This document shows positions 9,436 to 58,908 of a stretch of DNA of 64,000 nt, piece by piece (position 1 is the stretch's first letter; each line of letters opens with the position of its first letter). Origin of the DNA: a bacterium (GTDB lineage: Bacteria > Patescibacteriota > Minisyncoccia > Phycocordibacterales > Phycocordibacteraceae); contig DAICZA010000001.1 in assembly GCA_027311385.1 (NCBI GenBank), forward strand, positions 5,271 to 69,270. Direction: 5' to 3'. The notes under the pieces are model-generated. The model worked only from the letters and a program-made list of their open reading frames with translations. It did not search any database and had not been told where the DNA came from. Made by a program: the position numbers and the translations under genes.

Positions 9436-9507
9436 GGCCTCATCGTCTAACGGTTAGGACAGCGCCCTCTCACGGCGTAAATCGGGGTTCGATTCCCCGT
9501 GAGGTCA
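9436..9507 (+). tRNA. tRNA-Glu (anticodon CUC)
   Basis: Cloverleaf folds by hand: acceptor GGCCTCA/TGAGGTC (one G-U), D-arm GTCT-AACGGTTA-GGAC, anticodon stem GCGCC/GGCGT with loop CTCTCAC, T-arm CGGGG-TTCGATT-CCCCG, discriminator A; CCA not encoded. Confidence 0.8.
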
Positions 9508-9511
9508 CAAA

Positions 9512-30953: not shown

Positions 30954-31518
30954 GGTTAAAGTTCAGAACCCGATGGTATACTGCACAGAGTATGCCAAAA
31001 GAAAAAAGAACTTATGCCGATCGTGCCGAGTATTTGCGTAAGGCCGTTTCCGAACGTCGTAAGAAACTTCGTGAAATGGCGCGCGAATACCGGGGCGGGA
31101 AATGTATGATTTGTGGTTACAAACGGTATTCGGGAGCACTTGATTTCCACCATCGAGACCCCACGAAGAAAGACTTTGGTCTTTCTGTGAAGGGACTTAC
31201 GCGATCGTGGGAGAAAATCAAAATAGAGATTGAGAAATGTGCTCTCGTGTGCGCAAACTGTCATCGCGAAATACATGCAGGCATTACGCAGCTTCCTACA
31301 GAAATGTAGACTGAAAACGAGGTGAATTCGGGGAAACCCTAACAGAGGAAATGCTGTGGGCAATCCCGAGCCAAGTCCCGAGAGTAATCAAGGGAAAGGT
31401 GTAGAGACTATCCCGCAAGGGAGTAGACCGAAAGGTCGAAGCGCCTCGCATCCGACATTTACGAAATGTAAAAAGGATGATGATATAGTCCATCCCGCCA
31501 GTAACGGCGGAACAAATG
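30954..31518 (+). ncRNA. group I intron with embedded HNH homing-endonuclease ORF
   Basis: P7-like pairing (AGACTA...TAGTCC) in the 3' core, omega-G, U at 5' splice site; ORF sits in a peripheral loop. Confidence 0.6.
30992..31309 (+). CDS. HNH homing endonuclease (intron-encoded)
   Basis: CMICGY...HHRDP...CANCHREIH: CxxC/HH/CxxCH zinc-finger HNH motif, 105 aa. Confidence 0.8.
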   Translation: MPKEKRTYADRAEYLRKAVSERRKKLREMAREYRGGKCMICGYKRYSGALDFHHRDPTKKDFGLSVKGLTRSWEKIKIEIEKCALVCANCHREIHAGITQLPTEM

Positions 31519-42961: not shown

Positions 42962-44365
42962 CTAGAATTCCTGGAGATGCGCAAGCACGTTTACGATGAC
43001 CGAGGCCTTAGCGCTGGTGCCGTAGCTGTTCACGCAGTCAATCGCGTACACGGTCTGGGTCGTAATGGAATCAGTTGTGCCTGCGGAACTAAGACCGGTC
43101 TTCGGCCATCCCGTGGATGTGGGGTTTTTGGTAACGGTGCAGGAAGTCGCATCTGCGGATGACCACGCGATTGATACGTTATTCGGTGTCGCCGGATTCA
43201 CGCGCGCGGTACCGGTTTGGCCGTTCACGGTAAATGTCGTGACTGACGGGACGATGACCGTCACCGTCGCATTGGCGGGCGGCGGCGGGCCGTAGGTGCC
43301 GCCGGTGCAGGTGAGCGCGTAGGAGGTGGTGGGAGGACTTGGAGGAACCGTAGCACTTACTCCCGTTGAATTGGAGATTGCACCGCCAGTGTTGAAACCG
43401 CTTCCGCCGGAGCACGATGTCGCACAAGTAGACCCGCCTGGGACCGACCACGTAAGCGTCGTGTTCTGCCCCTGATTCACTGTGCTCGGCGTCGCGGTAA
43501 GCGTGGAGGTGCAGGCCTGAACCGGAACGCCTTGAGTGCCTGTGCCGCTGTCAGTACAAGTAGCGGTCGTACTGCTGTGCGTGATGGTATCGGTTACCGT
43601 AACCGATGCGCTCTTCTGTCCGGCCGTGATGTAGGTTTTCTGGACCGAGGCTGTGGAGCCGGAAAGACCATCAGTACCAGTCCACGAGTAGGTGTATGAA
43701 CCCGACCCGCCCACGGTTGAGGAACTCCACGTGACCGGCTGATTGACGTACGGGCTTGCGGGGGAACCCGTACACGTGGTGACTATCTGGCCGGCGCAAA
43801 TGGCCTGGCTGGAACCGGTCACACCGTACGTGGAACCGTTGGTCGCCGTCCCGCTCGCGCTTATCCACCCTACCGGCGTGGAGCCCCATGCATACCCTGT
43901 CCAGCCGCAGGTCGGGCTCTGCACCATACCGTAGGAAGAGCCGTCGCTCGCGGTGCCCGAAAGCGATATCCAGCCGTCCCAGCCGCCGCTGTTGCCGTCA
44001 AGTGCGCCACTGCAGGCGTTTTTGTTGGCGAATGCCGCACACGCGAGCGCCCAGCCGGTGACTTTCCCGGTTACGAAATTGACTGCGGGAGCAGGGTGCG
44101 AGCCGTCAGATGCATTGAAGCTTATCCAGCCGATATTTGACGACCACGCGTAGCCGGAGAGTGCTCCGCTCACACTATCTTCGGACACGCCGTAGCCCGG
44201 ACCGCTGAAGCTGATCCAGCCCGTGTTTGAGGACCACGCGTAGCCGGAGAGCGACATTGCGGACGCGTTCGCAGTGCCGTGCAGGGTCAGGAGAACCCCG
44301 AGCGCAACAATGACCAGCACCGGCAGAGAGGAGCGGAGGCGGCGGAGCAGTGGCGCAGATGACAT
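42962..44365 (-). CDS. secreted repeat protein (GYAWSSNxGWISF repeats + PKD-like domains)
   Basis: Signal peptide; at least three YAWSxNxGWIS repeats; Thr/Ser-rich PKD-like modules (YTYSWTGTDG...VTVTD). Confidence 0.5.
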   Translation of the reverse strand: MSSAPLLRRLRSSLPVLVIVALGVLLTLHGTANASAMSLSGYAWSSNTGWISFSGPGYGVSEDSVSGALSGYAWSSNIGWISFNASDGSHPAPAVNFVTGKVTGWALACAAFANKNACSGALDGNSGGWDGWISLSGTASDGSSYGMVQSPTCGWTGYAWGSTPVGWISASGTATNGSTYGVTGSSQAICAGQIVTTCTGSPASPYVNQPVTWSSSTVGGSGSYTYSWTGTDGLSGSTASVQKTYITAGQKSASVTVTDTITHSSTTATCTDSGTGTQGVPVQACTSTLTATPSTVNQGQNTTLTWSVPGGSTCATSCSGGSGFNTGGAISNSTGVSATVPPSPPTTSYALTCTGGTYGPPPPANATVTVIVPSVTTFTVNGQTGTARVNPATPNNVSIAWSSADATSCTVTKNPTSTGWPKTGLSSAGTTDSITTQTVYAIDCVNSYGTSAKASVIVNVLAHLQEF

Positions 44366-53915: not shown

Positions 53916-55892
53916 ATGCGCGCTCTTATCCTCGGCAACGGTTCGCTCCTCGTCACACTTGATGCGACCGGCGAGGTCCGCGACCTCTATTTCCCCCATG
54001 CCGGACTGGAGAATCATACCGGCGGCGATACCCGGCACCGAATCGGCGTATATTGCGACGGCGCGCTCTCGTGGCTTTCGGAAGACCCGCGGTGGGAAAT
54101 ACAGGTGTCCTGCGAGGAGGACTCCCTTGAGAGCCGCATTACCGCGAAGAATCCGGCGATTGAGGTTGAACTCGCGTTCCGCGATATCGTCTACAACGAG
54201 AGTTCAATATTCCTCCGCCAGATTACGGTCACGAACCGCGCCGCACGGGCGCGGGAGATTAAGTTGTATCTCGGGCATAAATTCACCATCGGCCAATCCC
54301 ACGGCGGCGAAACCGCCTACTTTGACCCGGCGACCAAAGTCATTATCCACTACAAGGGTAAACGCGCCTTTCTCATAAATGCGGAGTGCGACGGGGTGCC
54401 GTTCTCGGACTATGCCATCGGCATTACGCACTTTGAAGGAAAGCAAGGCACGTACCGCGACGCGGAAGACGGGGCGCTCTCAAAAAATCCGATTGAACAC
54501 GGGCATGTTGACTCGGTCATCGGGTTGTATAACCGGTACGAGGCGGGAGCAGAAAAGCAGGTCCGCTACTGGCTTGCGGTCGGCGATTCAATTGAACGGA
54601 CGCTGGAACTGAACGCGTATGTGCTCAAGAAGAGTCCCGAGCACCTCGTGAAGACCGCCGGGAATTATTGGCAGGCGTGGATTAACCGGTACCCGTGGAG
54701 TTTCTATCGTATGTCTCCCAAGACCGTAGCACTTTTCAAGAAATCGCTTATGTTCGTACGCGCGCACGTGGACGACGGCGGCGGCATCATCGCTTCCGCC
54801 GACGCGGCGGTTCTGCAATTCGGAGAAGACACGTACGCTTATGTCTGGCCGCGCGACGCGTCCTACGCGGCGCTCGCGCTTGACCATGCCGGCGACACCA
54901 ATGTCGCGGAACGGTTCTTCAATTTCTGCAACGCGGTCATCAGCAAAGACGGATATTTCATGCACAAATATCTGCCCGACCGTTCGCTCGGCTCTTCGTG
55001 GCACCCGTGGATACGGGACGGCGTAGAACAATTACCCATCCAGGAAGACGAGACGTCACTCGTCATCTGGGCGCTCGCCAAACACTATACGCACAGCCAC
55101 GACCTGGAGTTCATAGAATCCCTCTACAATTCTCTCATAGAAAAGGCGGCGAATTTTATGGCGGCGTACCGCGACACCGCAACCGGACTCCCGAAACCGT
55201 CGTACGACCTCTGGGAACAGAAGCACGGCGTCTCAACGTTTACTTCCGCCGCCGTGTACGGTGCACTCTCGGTCACCGCCGACCTTGCCGGCATTCTCGG
55301 GAAGGAAGACCGCAAGCAATTCTACCTCGCCGCCGCCACCGAGGTTCGCGAGGGAATCCTGACCCATCTGTTTGACCCGGAAACGGGGAGGTTCGCGAAA
55401 ATGATTGAGACCGTTGACCGGAAAACGGTGTACGACTCCCGGACGGATATCTCAAGCGTATACGGAGTCCTTTCTTTCGGCGTACTGCCGCCGGATGACC
55501 CCCGGCTTGCAAAAGCATTTGAGAATACGGTTGCACGATTGTCGGTCCAGGGCGGCGTTATGCGCTATGAGGATGACCACTATTATGATGACAACGCGGC
55601 GGACGGCGTCAGCAATCCCTGGTTCATTACGACGCTTTGGTACGCGGAATACCTCACGGCGCGCGCAAAAAGCGAAGAAGATTTTGCAAAAGTGCGGGAC
55701 ATTTTTGAGTGGGTCGCCCGCCACGCACTGTCTTCCGGCGTCCTTTCCGAACAGTTATCGGCAACAGACGGCACCCAGCGTTCGGTCGCCCCGCTTATGT
55801 GGAGCCACGCCGCCTACGTAAACGCCGTCTTGAATTATCTTGACCGGCTCGCGGAGGTCGGCATCTGTCCGGCCTGCAATCCGGTCCCGTGA
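53916..55892 (+). CDS. glycoside hydrolase family 15 (glucoamylase/glucodextranase-like)
   Basis: YAYVWPRDASYAALAL, NPWFITTLWYAEY (alpha/alpha)6 barrel signatures; N-terminal beta-sandwich. Confidence 0.75.
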   Translation: MRALILGNGSLLVTLDATGEVRDLYFPHAGLENHTGGDTRHRIGVYCDGALSWLSEDPRWEIQVSCEEDSLESRITAKNPAIEVELAFRDIVYNESSIFLRQITVTNRAARAREIKLYLGHKFTIGQSHGGETAYFDPATKVIIHYKGKRAFLINAECDGVPFSDYAIGITHFEGKQGTYRDAEDGALSKNPIEHGHVDSVIGLYNRYEAGAEKQVRYWLAVGDSIERTLELNAYVLKKSPEHLVKTAGNYWQAWINRYPWSFYRMSPKTVALFKKSLMFVRAHVDDGGGIIASADAAVLQFGEDTYAYVWPRDASYAALALDHAGDTNVAERFFNFCNAVISKDGYFMHKYLPDRSLGSSWHPWIRDGVEQLPIQEDETSLVIWALAKHYTHSHDLEFIESLYNSLIEKAANFMAAYRDTATGLPKPSYDLWEQKHGVSTFTSAAVYGALSVTADLAGILGKEDRKQFYLAAATEVREGILTHLFDPETGRFAKMIETVDRKTVYDSRTDISSVYGVLSFGVLPPDDPRLAKAFENTVARLSVQGGVMRYEDDHYYDDNAADGVSNPWFITTLWYAEYLTARAKSEEDFAKVRDIFEWVARHALSSGVLSEQLSATDGTQRSVAPLMWSHAAYVNAVLNYLDRLAEVGICPACNPVP

Positions 55893-56026
55893 GCCGCTAG
55901 CGCACACCAGATCGGCGACGAACTGGGGTCGGGCGGCAACGACGAAGCGGTCTATAAAACAGACGCGCAAAAACTATATTTTAAGGCGTCTTTTGGTTGT
56001 TGCAGTGTTTGATTTATAAAAAGTGC

Positions 56027-56347
56027 TTGACAGGATTTTATAACCTGCTATGATAGCACTACGTTCTAGTCGGGAGGAGATTCCTGCCCCAACGAGCGTT
56101 GTGCCGGCGAGGCTTCGGTCACGCTTTGCACAGGAGGTAGATGTACCTGGAGAGAGAGTAGGAGGTCGGCTGCCTAGGAGCCGATAACATTCGGTCTCAT
56201 GAACCGAATCGTTCCGCGGAAATTCCGCCAGTGCGGCGGGGGAGCTCTGAAAGGACGGGATGAGCTCCGTCGTTTTGTGCCGGATCGCCCAAGGGCGATC
56301 CACGGGGTGAAGGTTGACCGCAGGTCTCCTTCACCCCTTTTATTTTT
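56027..56347 (+). ncRNA. candidate unidentified structured RNA (own promoter TTGACA-N17-TATGAT, multiple hairpins, intrinsic terminator)
   Basis: About 290 nt with no convincing ORF; hairpins GTCGGCT/AGCCGAT, ATTCGGT/ACCGAAT, GGAGCTC/GAGCTCC, GGATCGCCC/GGGCGATCC; terminator GGGGTGAAGG...CCTTCACCCC+T-run at 56304-56347. No RNase P, tmRNA or SRP signature seen. Confidence 0.3.
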
Positions 56348-56424
56348 CTATACTCAATTCTTCATAAGCCGCACGAGGCGGATGGTTTCAAACGAGTGAG
56401 TTCATTTGTTTTGTCCACAAATCA

Positions 56425-56449
56425 ATGATGGGTTTCCGAAACCCATCAT
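56425..56449. repeat. REP-like perfect palindrome at left end of the RAYT gene (ATGATGGGTTTCCGAAACCCATCAT)
   Basis: 25-bp palindrome; related copies at 56616-56636 and 57152-57175. Confidence 0.6.
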
Positions 56450-56463
56450 GTATGATGAGGAAG

Positions 56464-57153
56464 ATGGAACTTTGGCACGCACTCAATCGGGGCGTTGACG
56501 GAAGAGATCTCTTTCTAGATTCTCAAGATTATGCACGCTTTGTTCACAATCTCTACGAATTTAACGACGTAGCCCCAGCTGATAATCTTGTGCGTCTCTT
56601 TGATCCTTCTGGTATGAGGGATTTCCGAAACCCTTCATTTAGGAAAAGCCGCAAGATGTTGGTGGATATTCACGGGTGGACATTGATGAAGAACCATTAT
56701 CATCTTTTGCTATCCGAAAGAATCGAAAACGGTATTAGATTATTTCTTCGCAAACTGAATGTTGGCTATGCAAATTATTTCAACAAACGCTACGAACGGA
56801 AAGGAACCCTTTTCCAAGGACATACAAAGAAAATATTGATCGTGCGCCAATCGCATTTTCTTTATATTCTCCATTATTTGCACCTTAATCCGCTTGATTA
56901 TCTTTCAGGTGCACAAGAATGGCGTCTGCGCAGTAAAAACGGGATCCGGGGCACGGGAGCAGCATTAGAACATCTTGACTCATATCGCTGGAGCAGTTAT
57001 CTCGATTATACTGGCAAAAAGAACTTCCCTTCTATTCTTACCCCGTCTCTTTTTAAGAATGTGCTCGGTGACTATCGCGATTCGCTCAAGGAATATCTTC
57101 ATGACGCCGAGTATGAATACGATGACGGTATAACGAGACTGACTATGGAATGA
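56464..57153 (+). CDS. REP-associated tyrosine transposase (RAYT; IS200-like Y1 HuH transposase)
   Basis: HuH motif in IHGWTLMKNHYHLLL, catalytic Tyr region (YANYFNKRY); start at MELWHAL. The track start 56425 lies inside the palindrome. Confidence 0.8.
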   Translation: MELWHALNRGVDGRDLFLDSQDYARFVHNLYEFNDVAPADNLVRLFDPSGMRDFRNPSFRKSRKMLVDIHGWTLMKNHYHLLLSERIENGIRLFLRKLNVGYANYFNKRYERKGTLFQGHTKKILIVRQSHFLYILHYLHLNPLDYLSGAQEWRLRSKNGIRGTGAALEHLDSYRWSSYLDYTGKKNFPSILTPSLFKNVLGDYRDSLKEYLHDAEYEYDDGITRLTME

Positions 57154-57198
57154 TGGGTTTCGGAAACCCTTCATCGGGAGTGATTGAGAACATACTCG

Positions 57199-58908
57199 CT
57201 AGCGCATAAGCCGCACGAGGCGGATGGTTTCAAACGAGTGGCGCCCGTGGAGGGCGTGGAAGACGGGCGAGAGTTTATCGCCCTGCGCCTCCGCGAGCGC
57301 CTCATGGACTTCGCCGACGATATCCAGCGGCACGAGATGCGCGAAATCACTGCGCGTGAGCTTGCCGATGTCTGCGAGCTCTTCCAAGTGATGCACGACC
57401 GTTGACGGGACAATCCCGCGCGCCTTCGCCGCGTCCTTGAGACTTTTTGCGTCCCGCACGGCGGAAAGCGTTTCCGCAAGCCGTCCCGGCAATCCCGCCG
57501 CCGTTGCATTCCCTTTTCTGTCTCCTGTTTTTTGTTTTTTACCTGCCGTCTCTTCCATCCATGCGCCGCCCATCGCTTTGACGAATTTTTTCTGCATTCC
57601 AATCTTTTCCGCCTCCGGCATCTGCACAAATGCGTCCCGCGCCGCCTCACTGGCGGCGCGGAAATCCCGGTCCTTCTCCAAAATCTCCGGATGTACCTCA
57701 AGCGCGCGCTGGTTGAGACCGGTGAGGTACACGCCGGAGAGCCGCCGCACGCGCGAGAGCGCGACGTATCCCTGCCCGTATTCAAACGCTTTGGAGAGGT
57801 CCATAATCGCGGCGTCCATACTCATCCCCTGGCTCTTGTGCACCGTCATCGCATAGGCGAGCCGCAGCGGCACCTGCGCGACGCTCGCCTTCACCTTTCC
57901 CTGCTCTTCCAGCTGCCACTCCATCGGCTCGGTAGAAATTTTCAGGCCGTCCTTCGTCTCAACGATAGGCATTCCGCCCGCGTCGGTGCCGATGACGACG
58001 CCGAGCGTCCCGTTGACGAACCTTCCTTGCGGCGAATTCTTGGTGAACATCACCGCCGCGCCTTCTTTCAATTCCAATGTCTCCGGCGAGAGACAGCCGC
58101 GCTTCAGCCCCTCTACGAGCGACTCTTTCCCTTTGGAACTCATACGGAAGGTCAGCACCTTGCCCGGGAGCTTCGCGAGCTCGGCGGCGTTGATGCGGTC
58201 CACGTCGGCGTTGTGCGAGAAGAGCTTCGGCGCGCCCAGTACCACATCCGATGTGGTACTGGGCAAGCCCGCTTCGGATTCTCCCGAGCCGATGCGACGT
58301 GCGTTTAATGCTTCATAGTGGAGCTCCTCTACGTTCCCCGCGCGGATTGCCGAGAGTACGCCGAGGAATTCCGCGTCGTCCTGCCGGTACTGCTCGGTGA
58401 GGTAGCAAGTGATGAGGTTCAGGTCGCGCCACAGGGGCGACGTGTACGCGAATTGGACGTCGCGGGCGCGCGACACCGGCGGCAACTGGAAGAAGTCGCC
58501 CACGAGTATAAGCGTGAGCCCGCCGAAGGGTTTATCCACGCGCCGCACTTCGCGGCAAATCGCGTCCGCCATTTCAAACGTCGTCGCCGAGAGCATGGAA
58601 ATCTCTTCAATGATGAGCACCTTCGCTTTCTGGATGCGCCGCGCGACATGCTCCTTGCCCGCGATGCGGTCCACGTCCGCGCGAGAAAGCGACTCGCTGA
58701 TGCCGATGCCGCTCCAGGAGTGGAGCGTCATTCCGCTTACGTGCGTCGCGGCGATGCCGGTTGCCGCCGTCACCGACGGCTCAATGCCGGAATCGCGCAG
58801 CCACGCGACGAACTCGTTGATGGTGTGTGTTTTCCCGCTCCCGGGCTCGCCGGTGAGGTACACGTTCGCACCCGTTTTCAATATGGTCAGCGCTTCGCCT
58901 TGGGTCAT
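57199..58908 (-). CDS. PIF1/RecD-family ATP-dependent DNA helicase
   Basis: Walker A GEPGSGKT, Walker B LIIEEISML, PIF1-like motifs GDFFQLPPV, ...QSQGMS; C-terminal codons lie in the right 36-bp direct repeat of the RAYT unit. Confidence 0.8.
   Translation of the reverse strand: MTQGEALTILKTGANVYLTGEPGSGKTHTINEFVAWLRDSGIEPSVTAATGIAATHVSGMTLHSWSGIGISESLSRADVDRIAGKEHVARRIQKAKVLIIEEISMLSATTFEMADAICREVRRVDKPFGGLTLILVGDFFQLPPVSRARDVQFAYTSPLWRDLNLITCYLTEQYRQDDAEFLGVLSAIRAGNVEELHYEALNARRIGSGESEAGLPSTTSDVVLGAPKLFSHNADVDRINAAELAKLPGKVLTFRMSSKGKESLVEGLKRGCLSPETLELKEGAAVMFTKNSPQGRFVNGTLGVVIGTDAGGMPIVETKDGLKISTEPMEWQLEEQGKVKASVAQVPLRLAYAMTVHKSQGMSMDAAIMDLSKAFEYGQGYVALSRVRRLSGVYLTGLNQRALEVHPEILEKDRDFRAASEAARDAFVQMPEAEKIGMQKKFVKAMGGAWMEETAGKKQKTGDRKGNATAAGLPGRLAETLSAVRDAKSLKDAAKARGIVPSTVVHHLEELADIGKLTRSDFAHLVPLDIVGEVHEALAEAQGDKLSPVFHALHGRHSFETIRLVRLMR

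Follow-up and report, generated by a model that had tools for sequence, protein, structure and literature searches.

The 64,000-nt stretch of Patescibacteria DNA analysed here (64 kb of contig DAICZA010000001.1, assembly GCA_027311385.1, referred to as the window) carries a gene for a HUH single-tyrosine (Y1) nuclease related to the REP-associated tyrosine transposases (RAYTs), where REP stands for repetitive extragenic palindrome. The gene occupies a compact unit of ~0.8 kb (56399-57191) that belongs to a family found across Patescibacteria, a group also termed the CPR (candidate phyla radiation), and the unit was inserted after the stop codon of a PIF1-like helicase gene, ahead of the region that originally lay downstream of that gene, with one copy of the helicase 3' end on either side. 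In the explanation that we favour, and to which we assign a probability of roughly 55%, a RAYT-like unit equipped with its own cognate hairpins was inserted at the helicase stop codon and the duplication of the gene end resulted from recombinational arrival or spread. RAYT/REP systems have been described mainly from Proteobacteria, and both the origin of REPs and their matching to the nuclease are still debated.

The insertion was established by comparison with the same site in relatives. A total of 80 orthologous helicase loci were collected and the genes downstream were counted in the 56 that extend at least 1 kb past the stop codon. A close RAYT was observed downstream of the helicase in one of them (the contig of locus L004), distant RAYT-like genes in six and none in 49. 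A second copy of the helicase end was absent from the 170 nt after the stop codon in the empty sites. Since 49 of the 56 loci have no such gene after the stop, the arrangement in the window is an insertion and not a pre-existing repeat. The initial annotation had placed an insertion at this gene end, had suggested the comparison with relatives and had left two possibilities, entry into an existing repeat or a duplication that accompanied insertion; the empty sites exclude the first and favour the second.

The empty sites also indicate which copy of the helicase end is the original one. In L087 and L097 the gene ends as CTTATG, one to three codons, a stop codon and (TT)GAGTAT, followed by an A-rich run and a hairpin. 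The left copy in the window reads RLMKN-stop, GAGTAT and AGAAAAATAAAA and is followed by the stem-loop at 56306-56349, a counterpart of which (GAGTAT, A-rich run and hairpin) was found after the helicase stop in the empty sites L087, L097 and L090. The KN-stop tail and the GAGTA motif of the left copy match the helicase gene end of L161, where the palindrome of a distant RAYT-like unit follows 8 nt further on. Because its layout matches that of L087 and L097, the left copy is the displaced original helicase end together with its native downstream sequence (RLMKN-stop, GAGTAT and terminator). The stem-loop is native sequence that follows the helicase, and it is where undisturbed host DNA has its left boundary. 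Helicase coding sequence does not continue into the left copy. The right copy is the functional helicase end now in use (RLMR-stop) and has a different, natural-looking tail, CGC TAG C GAGTAT, which closely resembles the L087 allele CGC TAG TT GAGTAT (CGCTAGTTGAGTAT).

The flanking 36-bp direct repeats (56363-56398 and 57205-57240) are identical and are the only two matches in the window; no third site for the 36-mer was found there at up to three mismatches, with 0 expected by chance. The similarity reaches 49 nt at 88% (56350-56398 and 57192-57240), and the 36-mer is its core. Beyond the core, on one side, the copies carry 13 extra bases consisting of a 7-nt block that is entirely different between them and then six identical bases (ATACTC). 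The 36 bp first reported are thus correct as an exact core and too short as the full extent, which is 49 bp with two different natural-looking tails. The 36-mer codes for HSFETIRLVRLM, with the final R and the stop codon of the helicase outside it, and the right 36-mer consequently does not encode the last 12 codons up to the stop as had been proposed. The repeats bracket the unit exactly, the repeat stopping precisely at CACTCG, and the nuclease gene is the sole gene in the 806 bp that separate the two 36-bp copies. The base composition of this DNA also stands out, with a G+C content of 36-46% between the repeats against 56-64% around them and of 0.425 in the gene against 0.589 in the host. 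Within the left spacer, the block TTTTGTCCACAA (56409-56420) is preceded by variable filler and is kept in the closest relatives, as seen in the alignment with L081 and L082; L083 aligns only weakly there. The right spacer was not found in the relatives, in which the palindrome lies 2-4 nt from the helicase stop. The features of the region are collected in Table 1.

Table 1. Features of the nuclease unit and its flanks, in window coordinates
Feature	Positions	Strand	Remarks
Stem-loop (GGGGTGAAGG...CCTTCACCCC) with T-run	56306..56349	+	Read directly
Left copy of helicase 3' end, ...HSFETIRLVRLMKN-stop, then GAGTAT	56350..56398	-	From repeat comparison and L161, L087, L097
Left spacer of unit	56399..56424	+	From alignment with L081 and L082 and flanks of L174 and L177
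Left cognate palindrome ATGATGGGTTTCCGAAACCCATCAT	56425..56449	+	Perfect 11-12 bp stem, central base C
RAYT-like HUH Y1 nuclease gene	56464..57153	+	229 aa from M14; listed open reading frame begins at 56425
Internal in-frame palindrome	56614..56638	+	25 nt, two stem mismatches, encodes MRDFRNPSF
Right cognate palindrome ATGATGGGTTTCGGAAACCCTTCAT	57150..57174	+	One mismatch; overlaps TGA stop of nuclease gene
Right spacer CGGGAGTGATTGAGAAC	57175..57191	+	Compared with relatives
Right copy of helicase 3' end, ...HSFETIRLVRLMR-stop, then C-GAGTAT	57192..57240	-	Stop codon at 57199-57201
PIF1-like SF1B helicase gene with C-terminal HTH_40 domain	57199..58908	-	Its 3' end is duplicated

The protein carries a HUH motif (H91-Y-H93) and a catalytic tyrosine, Y151, within YLHLNP, and an extra helical domain of ~90 aa follows the catalytic region at the C-terminus. 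Residues H91, H93, Y151, N155 and P156 are invariant in 30 aligned sequences, and among 89 diverse representatives of the family conservation was seen at H80, Y138 and N142 (counting from M14). The Pfam model Y1_Tnp matches all 30 aligned members; the window protein itself scores 23.0 bits, exactly the gathering score of 23, and its 24.5 bits against the NCBIfam model NF047646 (REP_Tyr_transpos) are far under the cut-off of 80. A profile built on the 89 representatives gave Escherichia coli TnpA_REP (4ER8) as its best PDB match, followed by ISDra2 TnpA, and the alignment to 4ER8 spans from the HUH motif through YIYINP (YIxxNP). The AlphaFold model made from the same alignment (pLDDT 88.5, pTM 0.85) has 4ER8_A as its top Foldseek match (E 1.8e-5, TM 0.60 on target), with IS608, ISDra2 and IS200 TnpA next. 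A profile from the 30 close homologues found no PDB relative, and the model from those 30 (pLDDT 43) was not used. The profile, the model and the fold matches thus identify the protein as a HUH single-tyrosine nuclease that belongs to the RAYT/IS200 superfamily and is closest to the RAYTs, which agrees with the class first given to it. The C-terminal glutamate and the stop codon are invariant across the family. Most homologues start with MELWHALN, and the true start in the window is probably at 56452-56464; because the homologue starts place it there, the left palindrome would lie upstream of the coding sequence and not over its first codons as the initial annotation had it.

Three palindromes belong to the unit. 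Sites for GGGTTTCCGAAACCC at up to two mismatches were found only at these three positions of the 64 kb, where 0.14 would be expected, and the two outer ones bracket the gene as had been noticed at the outset. The left and right palindromes are 96% complementary or identical. Their length is odd, the central base is unpaired and the two copies are reverse complements of each other; the central CG/GC flip that had been remarked on is thus present without being a mutation. The folding energies for single-stranded DNA are -10.3 kcal/mol (z -5.4) for the left hairpin and -7.2 kcal/mol (z -2.5) for the right one, and the internal copy of the window, at -3.4 kcal/mol (z -0.75), does no better than shuffled sequence. 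This internal copy had been listed as a variant at 56616-56636; it is slightly longer (Table 1) and is more than a variant, since its position is conserved family-wide. It falls in the sole internal low-confidence loop of the nuclease model.

The triple arrangement is a property of the family. The left, internal and right palindromes were observed at fixed positions in 57 of 81 loci, that is, just before the start codon, ~185 nt downstream in the reading frame and overlapping the invariant glutamate and stop codon. Among 49 clean triples, palindrome identity was 93% within a locus (median 100%) against 62% between loci. Paired bases made up 93% of the stem cells compared with 67% in shuffles, and compensatory change was abundant, with a stem covariation score of 0.643 versus 0.159 that was attained by none of 500 shuffles and slid controls of at most 0.15. 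The orientation of the three central bases varies freely among the positions in these 49 loci (+++ in 11, +-- in 11, ++- in 8 and other combinations in the rest), and the inverted flanking palindromes of the window (central C versus G) are one of several arrangements in the family. The internal palindrome encodes a variable peptide, MRDF(V/R)NPSF, and is a conserved family feature rather than a chance similarity.

The family comprises 2,244 close homologues within a wider superfamily of 17,645 clusters, and the homologues with a taxonomic label are Kaiserbacteria, Paceibacterota or other Patescibacteria. Conservation of the nuclease is 65-88% identity across thousands of homologues. The window holds one copy of the gene, and some metagenome-assembled genomes (MAGs) hold two or three paralogues that are 55-75% identical, each with its own palindrome type. 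The mean G+C content of the RAYT-like gene is 0.443 against 0.536 in the flanks (~9 points lower in L001-L083) and tracks that of the host (r = 0.78). A scan of viral contigs found no member of the family, and there is therefore no evidence for a phage vector.

Palindromes of the family type also occur away from the units in relatives. Around 20 were counted in 389 kb flanking related loci and around 12 in 410 kb around helicase orthologues, a density of roughly 1 per 20-35 kb, and inverted doublets resembling REPINs adjoin some relatives (e.g. L020, L035, L064, L069, L076 and L077). Those off the RAYT units often lie inside long open reading frames (ORFs) of 276-979 aa, as at L059 (4623-4647 and 5148-5172), L063 (4520-4548), L072 (4209-4237) and L035 (6065-6093), with more in L058, L031, L056 and L078. 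Several of the ORF-internal palindromes have the reading frame that is used in the RAYT gene (M-x-D-[IL]-...).

Third codon positions indicate that the unit has moved between genomes. The helicase 3' region of most relatives is 45-50% identical to the window at these positions (57% in L087), which is saturated even for the closest empty loci. The RAYT gene retains 68% in L082, 59% in L081, 56% in L083 and 49% in L004, so that in L082 the nuclease at 68% adjoins a saturated helicase at 46.5%. From this contrast the unit would have moved between lineages after the host genes diverged, and we infer horizontal spread of the unit to the same gene end. The window helicase is most similar to that of empty loci, and RAYT-bearing loci are scattered among empty ones. 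Homologues of ~80% identity were also found in unrelated contexts, after GAPDH and after recR. The right-hand neighbours were convergent ORFs in 49 of 68 cases, and in 31 of the 49 the stop codon lay -10 to +13 nt from the right palindrome, from which the units seem to settle directly after the stop codons of neighbouring genes.

Close RAYTs (71-88% identity) are convergent to the helicase stop in L001, L004, L082, L083, L174, L177 and L178, and the short right flank of L081 ends in the same way as in these loci. The far-side pseudo-copy of the helicase end is full length in the window (49 nt) and ~45 nt long in L081, where it still reads HSFEAIRLARLMKQ followed by two stop codons. In L082, 29 nt are visible before the contig end cuts it; L177 retains 20 nt and L178 ~6 nt, the copy of L083 is degenerate, and L174, L001 and L004 have none. 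L177 also contains a solo module (1224-1330) between the right palindrome and the helicase, made of 12 nt from the helicase end together with the left spacer and a palindrome, so that the helicase end is present three times. Such an arrangement would be expected after unequal exchange between repeats; it suggests that the unit was amplified in tandem in this way and that one RAYT body was lost later.

Non-palindromic flanking repeats were rare elsewhere: in a survey of ~85 units they were found only in the helicase group, in L062 and in L170-L173, and ~95% of units have none. The two identical 24-bp copies in L062 correspond to the last seven codons and the stop of a convergent gene. In L170-L173 a 92-bp repeat (88 of 92 identical) with different tails corresponds to the 3' end of the upstream recR, and this duplication was seen in four independent contigs from different samples. 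All mismatches between copies in L170 (4/4) and in L082 (3/3) fall at third codon positions. Because the tails differ wholesale while the rest is identical, and because the mismatches fall at third positions, the copies look as if two alleles of a functional gene had come together, and less as if one copy had been decaying where it lies.

These observations can be brought together in the following mechanism. By analogy with TnpA_REP and IS608 TnpA, the nuclease would recognise its cognate hairpin on single-stranded DNA and nick nearby; through such recognition all three palindromes would stay matched to the protein, and the unit could move. The gene-end duplication would then be a by-product of recombinational arrival or spread and not a target-site duplication of fixed length, with the unit travelling between related genomes along with a piece of the neighbouring gene's end. 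Two routes may be envisaged. In the first, homology would anchor a donor fragment in the gene end, and its other side would be attached by an illegitimate join, with CGCTAGCGAGTATGTTCTCAATCACTCCCG followed by the palindrome as the donor-type junction. In the second, exchange between the repeats would release a circle, with 57191 joined to 56399 via one 49-bp copy, that could re-enter by a single crossover in the gene end; the corresponding empty-site junction would have the form CTTATG, one tail and GAGTATAGAAAAAT. Either route would leave the target gene intact and strand its old end on the far side.

Several points weigh against this explanation. With up to two mismatches allowed, the 64 kb contained no palindrome copies beyond those of the unit. 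The initial annotation had proposed a genome-wide count of the palindrome as the REP family of this RAYT and had named palindromes unique to the locus together with a 36-mer at unrelated loci as what would speak against its reading; in the window all three palindromes lie inside the unit, and only the first half of that pair was observed. No excision product, activity or second identical copy was seen in the sequence at hand, and the unit may be inactive or ageing because its internal palindrome is degenerate and the right one is imperfect. The window, L081 and L082 share the base at which the pseudo-copy begins (CACTCG), and the length series in relatives (49, 45, 20, 6 and 0 nt) would suit a single old event followed by decay equally well. 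The third-position pattern of the mismatches is only marginally significant (~0.04, mixed model), and when the junctions of the repeats in the window, L062 and L170 were inspected by eye, neither microhomology nor a short motif in common, nor a cleavage motif, was found.

A bolder version of events, which we regard as possible at best, treats the unit as a homing cassette whose hairpins colonise coding sequence in-frame. The unit would settle at stop codons and could take along a stretch of the adjoining gene end, which would allow it to re-enter the same gene end in diverged relatives by recombination and to leave duplications of variable length. The hairpin within its own gene would be kept in concert with the two flanking copies, and others would enter host genes such as the helicase. 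If true, it would represent a mode of spread that has not been described for HUH Y1 elements.

The main rival, somewhat doubtful in our judgement, is a single ancient insertion with duplication in the ancestor of the helicase clade, followed by vertical inheritance, with gene conversion keeping the 36-mers of the window identical and decay of the pseudo-copy by deletion in other lineages. The common boundary of the pseudo-copy in the window, L081 and L082 and the graded remnants described above, down to none in L174, L001 and L004, are well explained by it. L081 and L177 share the same pair of tails, KQ-stop in the pseudo-copy and QK-stop in the functional copy, and the two copies of one genome change together (ACC/ACC in the window and GTC/GTC in L082). 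The third-position contrast between RAYT and helicase in the window and L082, however, and the scatter of RAYT-bearing loci among empty ones by helicase similarity count against it. Conversion would also have to skip a 7-nt block between 36 and six identical bases, and homologous exchange is efficient only down to lengths not far from 36 bp. This rival is compatible with the recombinational account that we favour, since one founding event followed by recombinational spread fits all the data.

A true target-site duplication, made by variable-stagger cleavage of both target strands by the Y1 nuclease, is improbable. It would explain why both copies adjoin their natural neighbours and why the two identical copies in L062 include the stop codon. 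Lengths of 24, 49 and 92 bp together with the absence of duplication in ~95% of units disfavour a fixed stagger, and a target duplication of fixed length by the enzyme is thus unlikely. The differing tails in the window and L170 are not explicable by point mutation when the rest is identical, no common junction motif was found, and the characterised Y1 transposases (IS608 and ISDra2) insert single strands without duplication.

We consider it very improbable that the gene is an immobile RAYT, domesticated for a host function together with its REPs, and that the repeat is a local duplication unrelated to it. Strong conservation over thousands of homologues (65-88% identity), the correlation of gene G+C with host G+C (r = 0.78) and the same helicase-adjacent position in several relatives would suit such a role; against it stand 80%-identity homologues in unrelated contexts, several copies per MAG, mostly empty orthologous helicase loci, repeats that bracket the unit exactly and the lack of dispersed REPs in the window. 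An assembly artefact in which two strain variants were joined via a shared k-mer was rejected: the copies do carry tails typical of two different alleles and, all relatives being MAGs, a metagenome assembly is the probable source, but other samples that were assembled independently (L081, L082 and L177) have the same junction between the left end of the unit and the start of the pseudo-copy, and the recR case recurs in four contigs from different samples.

In comparison with known systems, the recombinationally spreading unit proposed here is nearest to the RAYT/REP systems. Like E. coli TnpA_REP (4ER8), the best match by profile and fold, its nuclease combines a HUH motif with a single catalytic tyrosine in Y-x-x-x-N-P. 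The window gene is flanked by its own hairpin palindromes, which covary with the gene lineage, and cognate palindromes occur on both sides in most of 80 related loci. Palindromes at gene 3' ends, REPIN-like inverted doublets beside some relatives and several paralogues per genome, each with its own palindrome type, are further points of likeness. The differences lie in the weak sequence similarity (24.5 bits against a curated cut-off of 80), the length of the window protein (~229 aa) with its extra C-terminal helical domain, the third cognate palindrome in-frame within the gene and the few dispersed palindrome copies, none elsewhere in the 64 kb. Classical RAYTs are single-copy, stable and vertically inherited, whereas the present family is multi-copy, changes position and is horizontally spread; some of its units are flanked by duplicated gene ends, and its hosts are Patescibacteria. 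The family can therefore be placed only partly with the classical RAYT/REP systems. Among the papers listed by one literature search on RAYT or REPIN in Patescibacteria or CPR, none mentions RAYT or REPIN, and none has an in-frame internal palindrome, in-frame palindromes in host genes or long duplicated gene ends; to our knowledge, these three features are not known from the RAYT literature.

The IS200/IS605 elements share the Y1 HUH fold and a minimal size of ~0.7-0.8 kb with one gene and hairpins at both ends. They also resemble the family in lacking classical terminal inverted repeats, in that most units have no flanking duplication, and in being multi-copy in some genomes. However, they have distinct left and right hairpins on one strand, whereas the present family uses the same palindrome at both ends and inside the gene, and the orientation of its central bases varies between loci. 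No conserved short target motif and no identical copies were seen in the present sequence set, and the protein is nearer to TnpA_REP than to IS608 TnpA in both the profile and the fold searches.

The duplication itself is reminiscent of att-type elements, the phages and islands at the ends of tRNA or protein genes, in which repeats of the target-gene 3' end bracket the insert and leave the gene intact. As in those, the copies differ where incoming and resident sequences differ, and the helicase, L062 and recR (L170) cases are of this kind. In contrast to att-type elements, there is no tyrosine or serine recombinase between the window repeats, only the HUH nuclease gene, and repeat length in the family ranges from 0 to 92 bp with most members having none. 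The in-frame palindromes may resemble the Rickettsia palindromic elements, which are hairpin palindromes placed in-frame at permissive loops of coding sequence; the cases here are the RAYT gene itself, the helicase (58234-58264) and long ORFs of relatives. The Rickettsia elements are ~100-150 nt long, compared with 25-31 nt for the present palindromes, which are linked to a cognate HUH gene.

The helicase gene contains palindromes of its own. A 31-nt near-perfect palindrome, GCCCAGTACCACATCCGATGTGGTACTGGGC, lies within its coding sequence at 58234-58264, with a folding energy of -18.2 kcal/mol as single-stranded DNA (z -6.6). The peptide that it encodes, LPSTTSDVVLG, represents an in-frame insert of 9 aa that only L084 and L086 have in common with the window and that 12 other orthologues lack, and its core ACATCCGATGT matches the palindromes of the RAYT units L061 and L020. 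It looks as though a REP-like hairpin had made its way into a coding loop. A second palindrome, CGCGCCGCCTC[CG]GAGGCGGCGCG, is conserved inside the helicase gene of many orthologues (57635-57663 in the window, and ~3719-3783 in L084, L087, L101 and others) and encodes the palindromic peptide RAASEAAR.

Distant RAYT-like paralogues (27-36% identity) start ~10-100 nt from orthologous helicase stops in L103, L125, L127/L128, L161 and L123, the one in L161 on the same strand as the helicase, and they have palindromes of their own (e.g. TGTGCAACACCTGGTGTTGCACA, GTATTGAAGTCAGACTTCAATAC and ATTCTAAGGTCCGACCTTAGAAT). The helicase gene end has been struck by at least three other RAYT subfamilies, which could reflect a hot spot or a functional link between HUH nucleases and PIF1-like helicases. 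A conserved Helitron-like pairing of nuclease and helicase was rejected as a general module, as a helicase is present at only 5 of 83 RAYT loci and most helicase loci have no RAYT.

Other features were noted in the vicinity of the unit. A candidate structured RNA occupies 56027-56349, with a near-consensus promoter (TTGACA-16-TATGAT, 11/12, with TG) at 56027-56054 that is common to the window and L081. Its 288-nt transcript region folds at -130 kcal/mol (z -4.25) and ends in a 10-bp stem and T-run; the stem-loop at 56306-56349 is its terminator. Neither this candidate nor nine related loci matched an Rfam family, and ARAGORN found no transfer-messenger RNA. An Rfam scan of the window at gathering thresholds and a scan of 55850-57300 by E-value gave nothing relevant; the sole hit in the region, a weak match to the RAGATH-1 hammerhead (E 0.17), was treated as chance. 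At 55905-56010 (+), beside a glucoamylase-like gene, a C-terminal remnant of ~35 codons (...IGDELGSGGNDEAVYKT...) shows a HAD-hydrolase-like motif by eye, and its intact counterpart is convergent directly after the helicase in many relatives. Because only these ~35 codons remain, the region downstream of the helicase has been rearranged. Further away, the window contains a group I intron at 31222-31511 (79 bits, E 2e-18), a 23-nt palindrome, GTATCGGTTACCGTAACCGATGC, at 43587-43609 inside a 472-aa ORF and a 52-nt palindrome with a 25-bp stem at 9505-9556, which starts at the 3' end of a tRNA gene (9436-9507). No rRNA was detected in the window.

The family may offer a natural experiment, with three hairpins per unit, one of them in the reading frame, all changing together between lineages, and the co-evolution of protein and DNA hairpin is directly testable with a few oligonucleotides. 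In very small genomes, where intergenic space is almost absent, hairpin elements may find their way into coding sequence, as the family also suggests. Furthermore, a single-strand nuclease unit may become flanked by long duplicated gene ends, which are normally a sign of recombinase-driven islands, and the annotation of such repeats would be affected by this.

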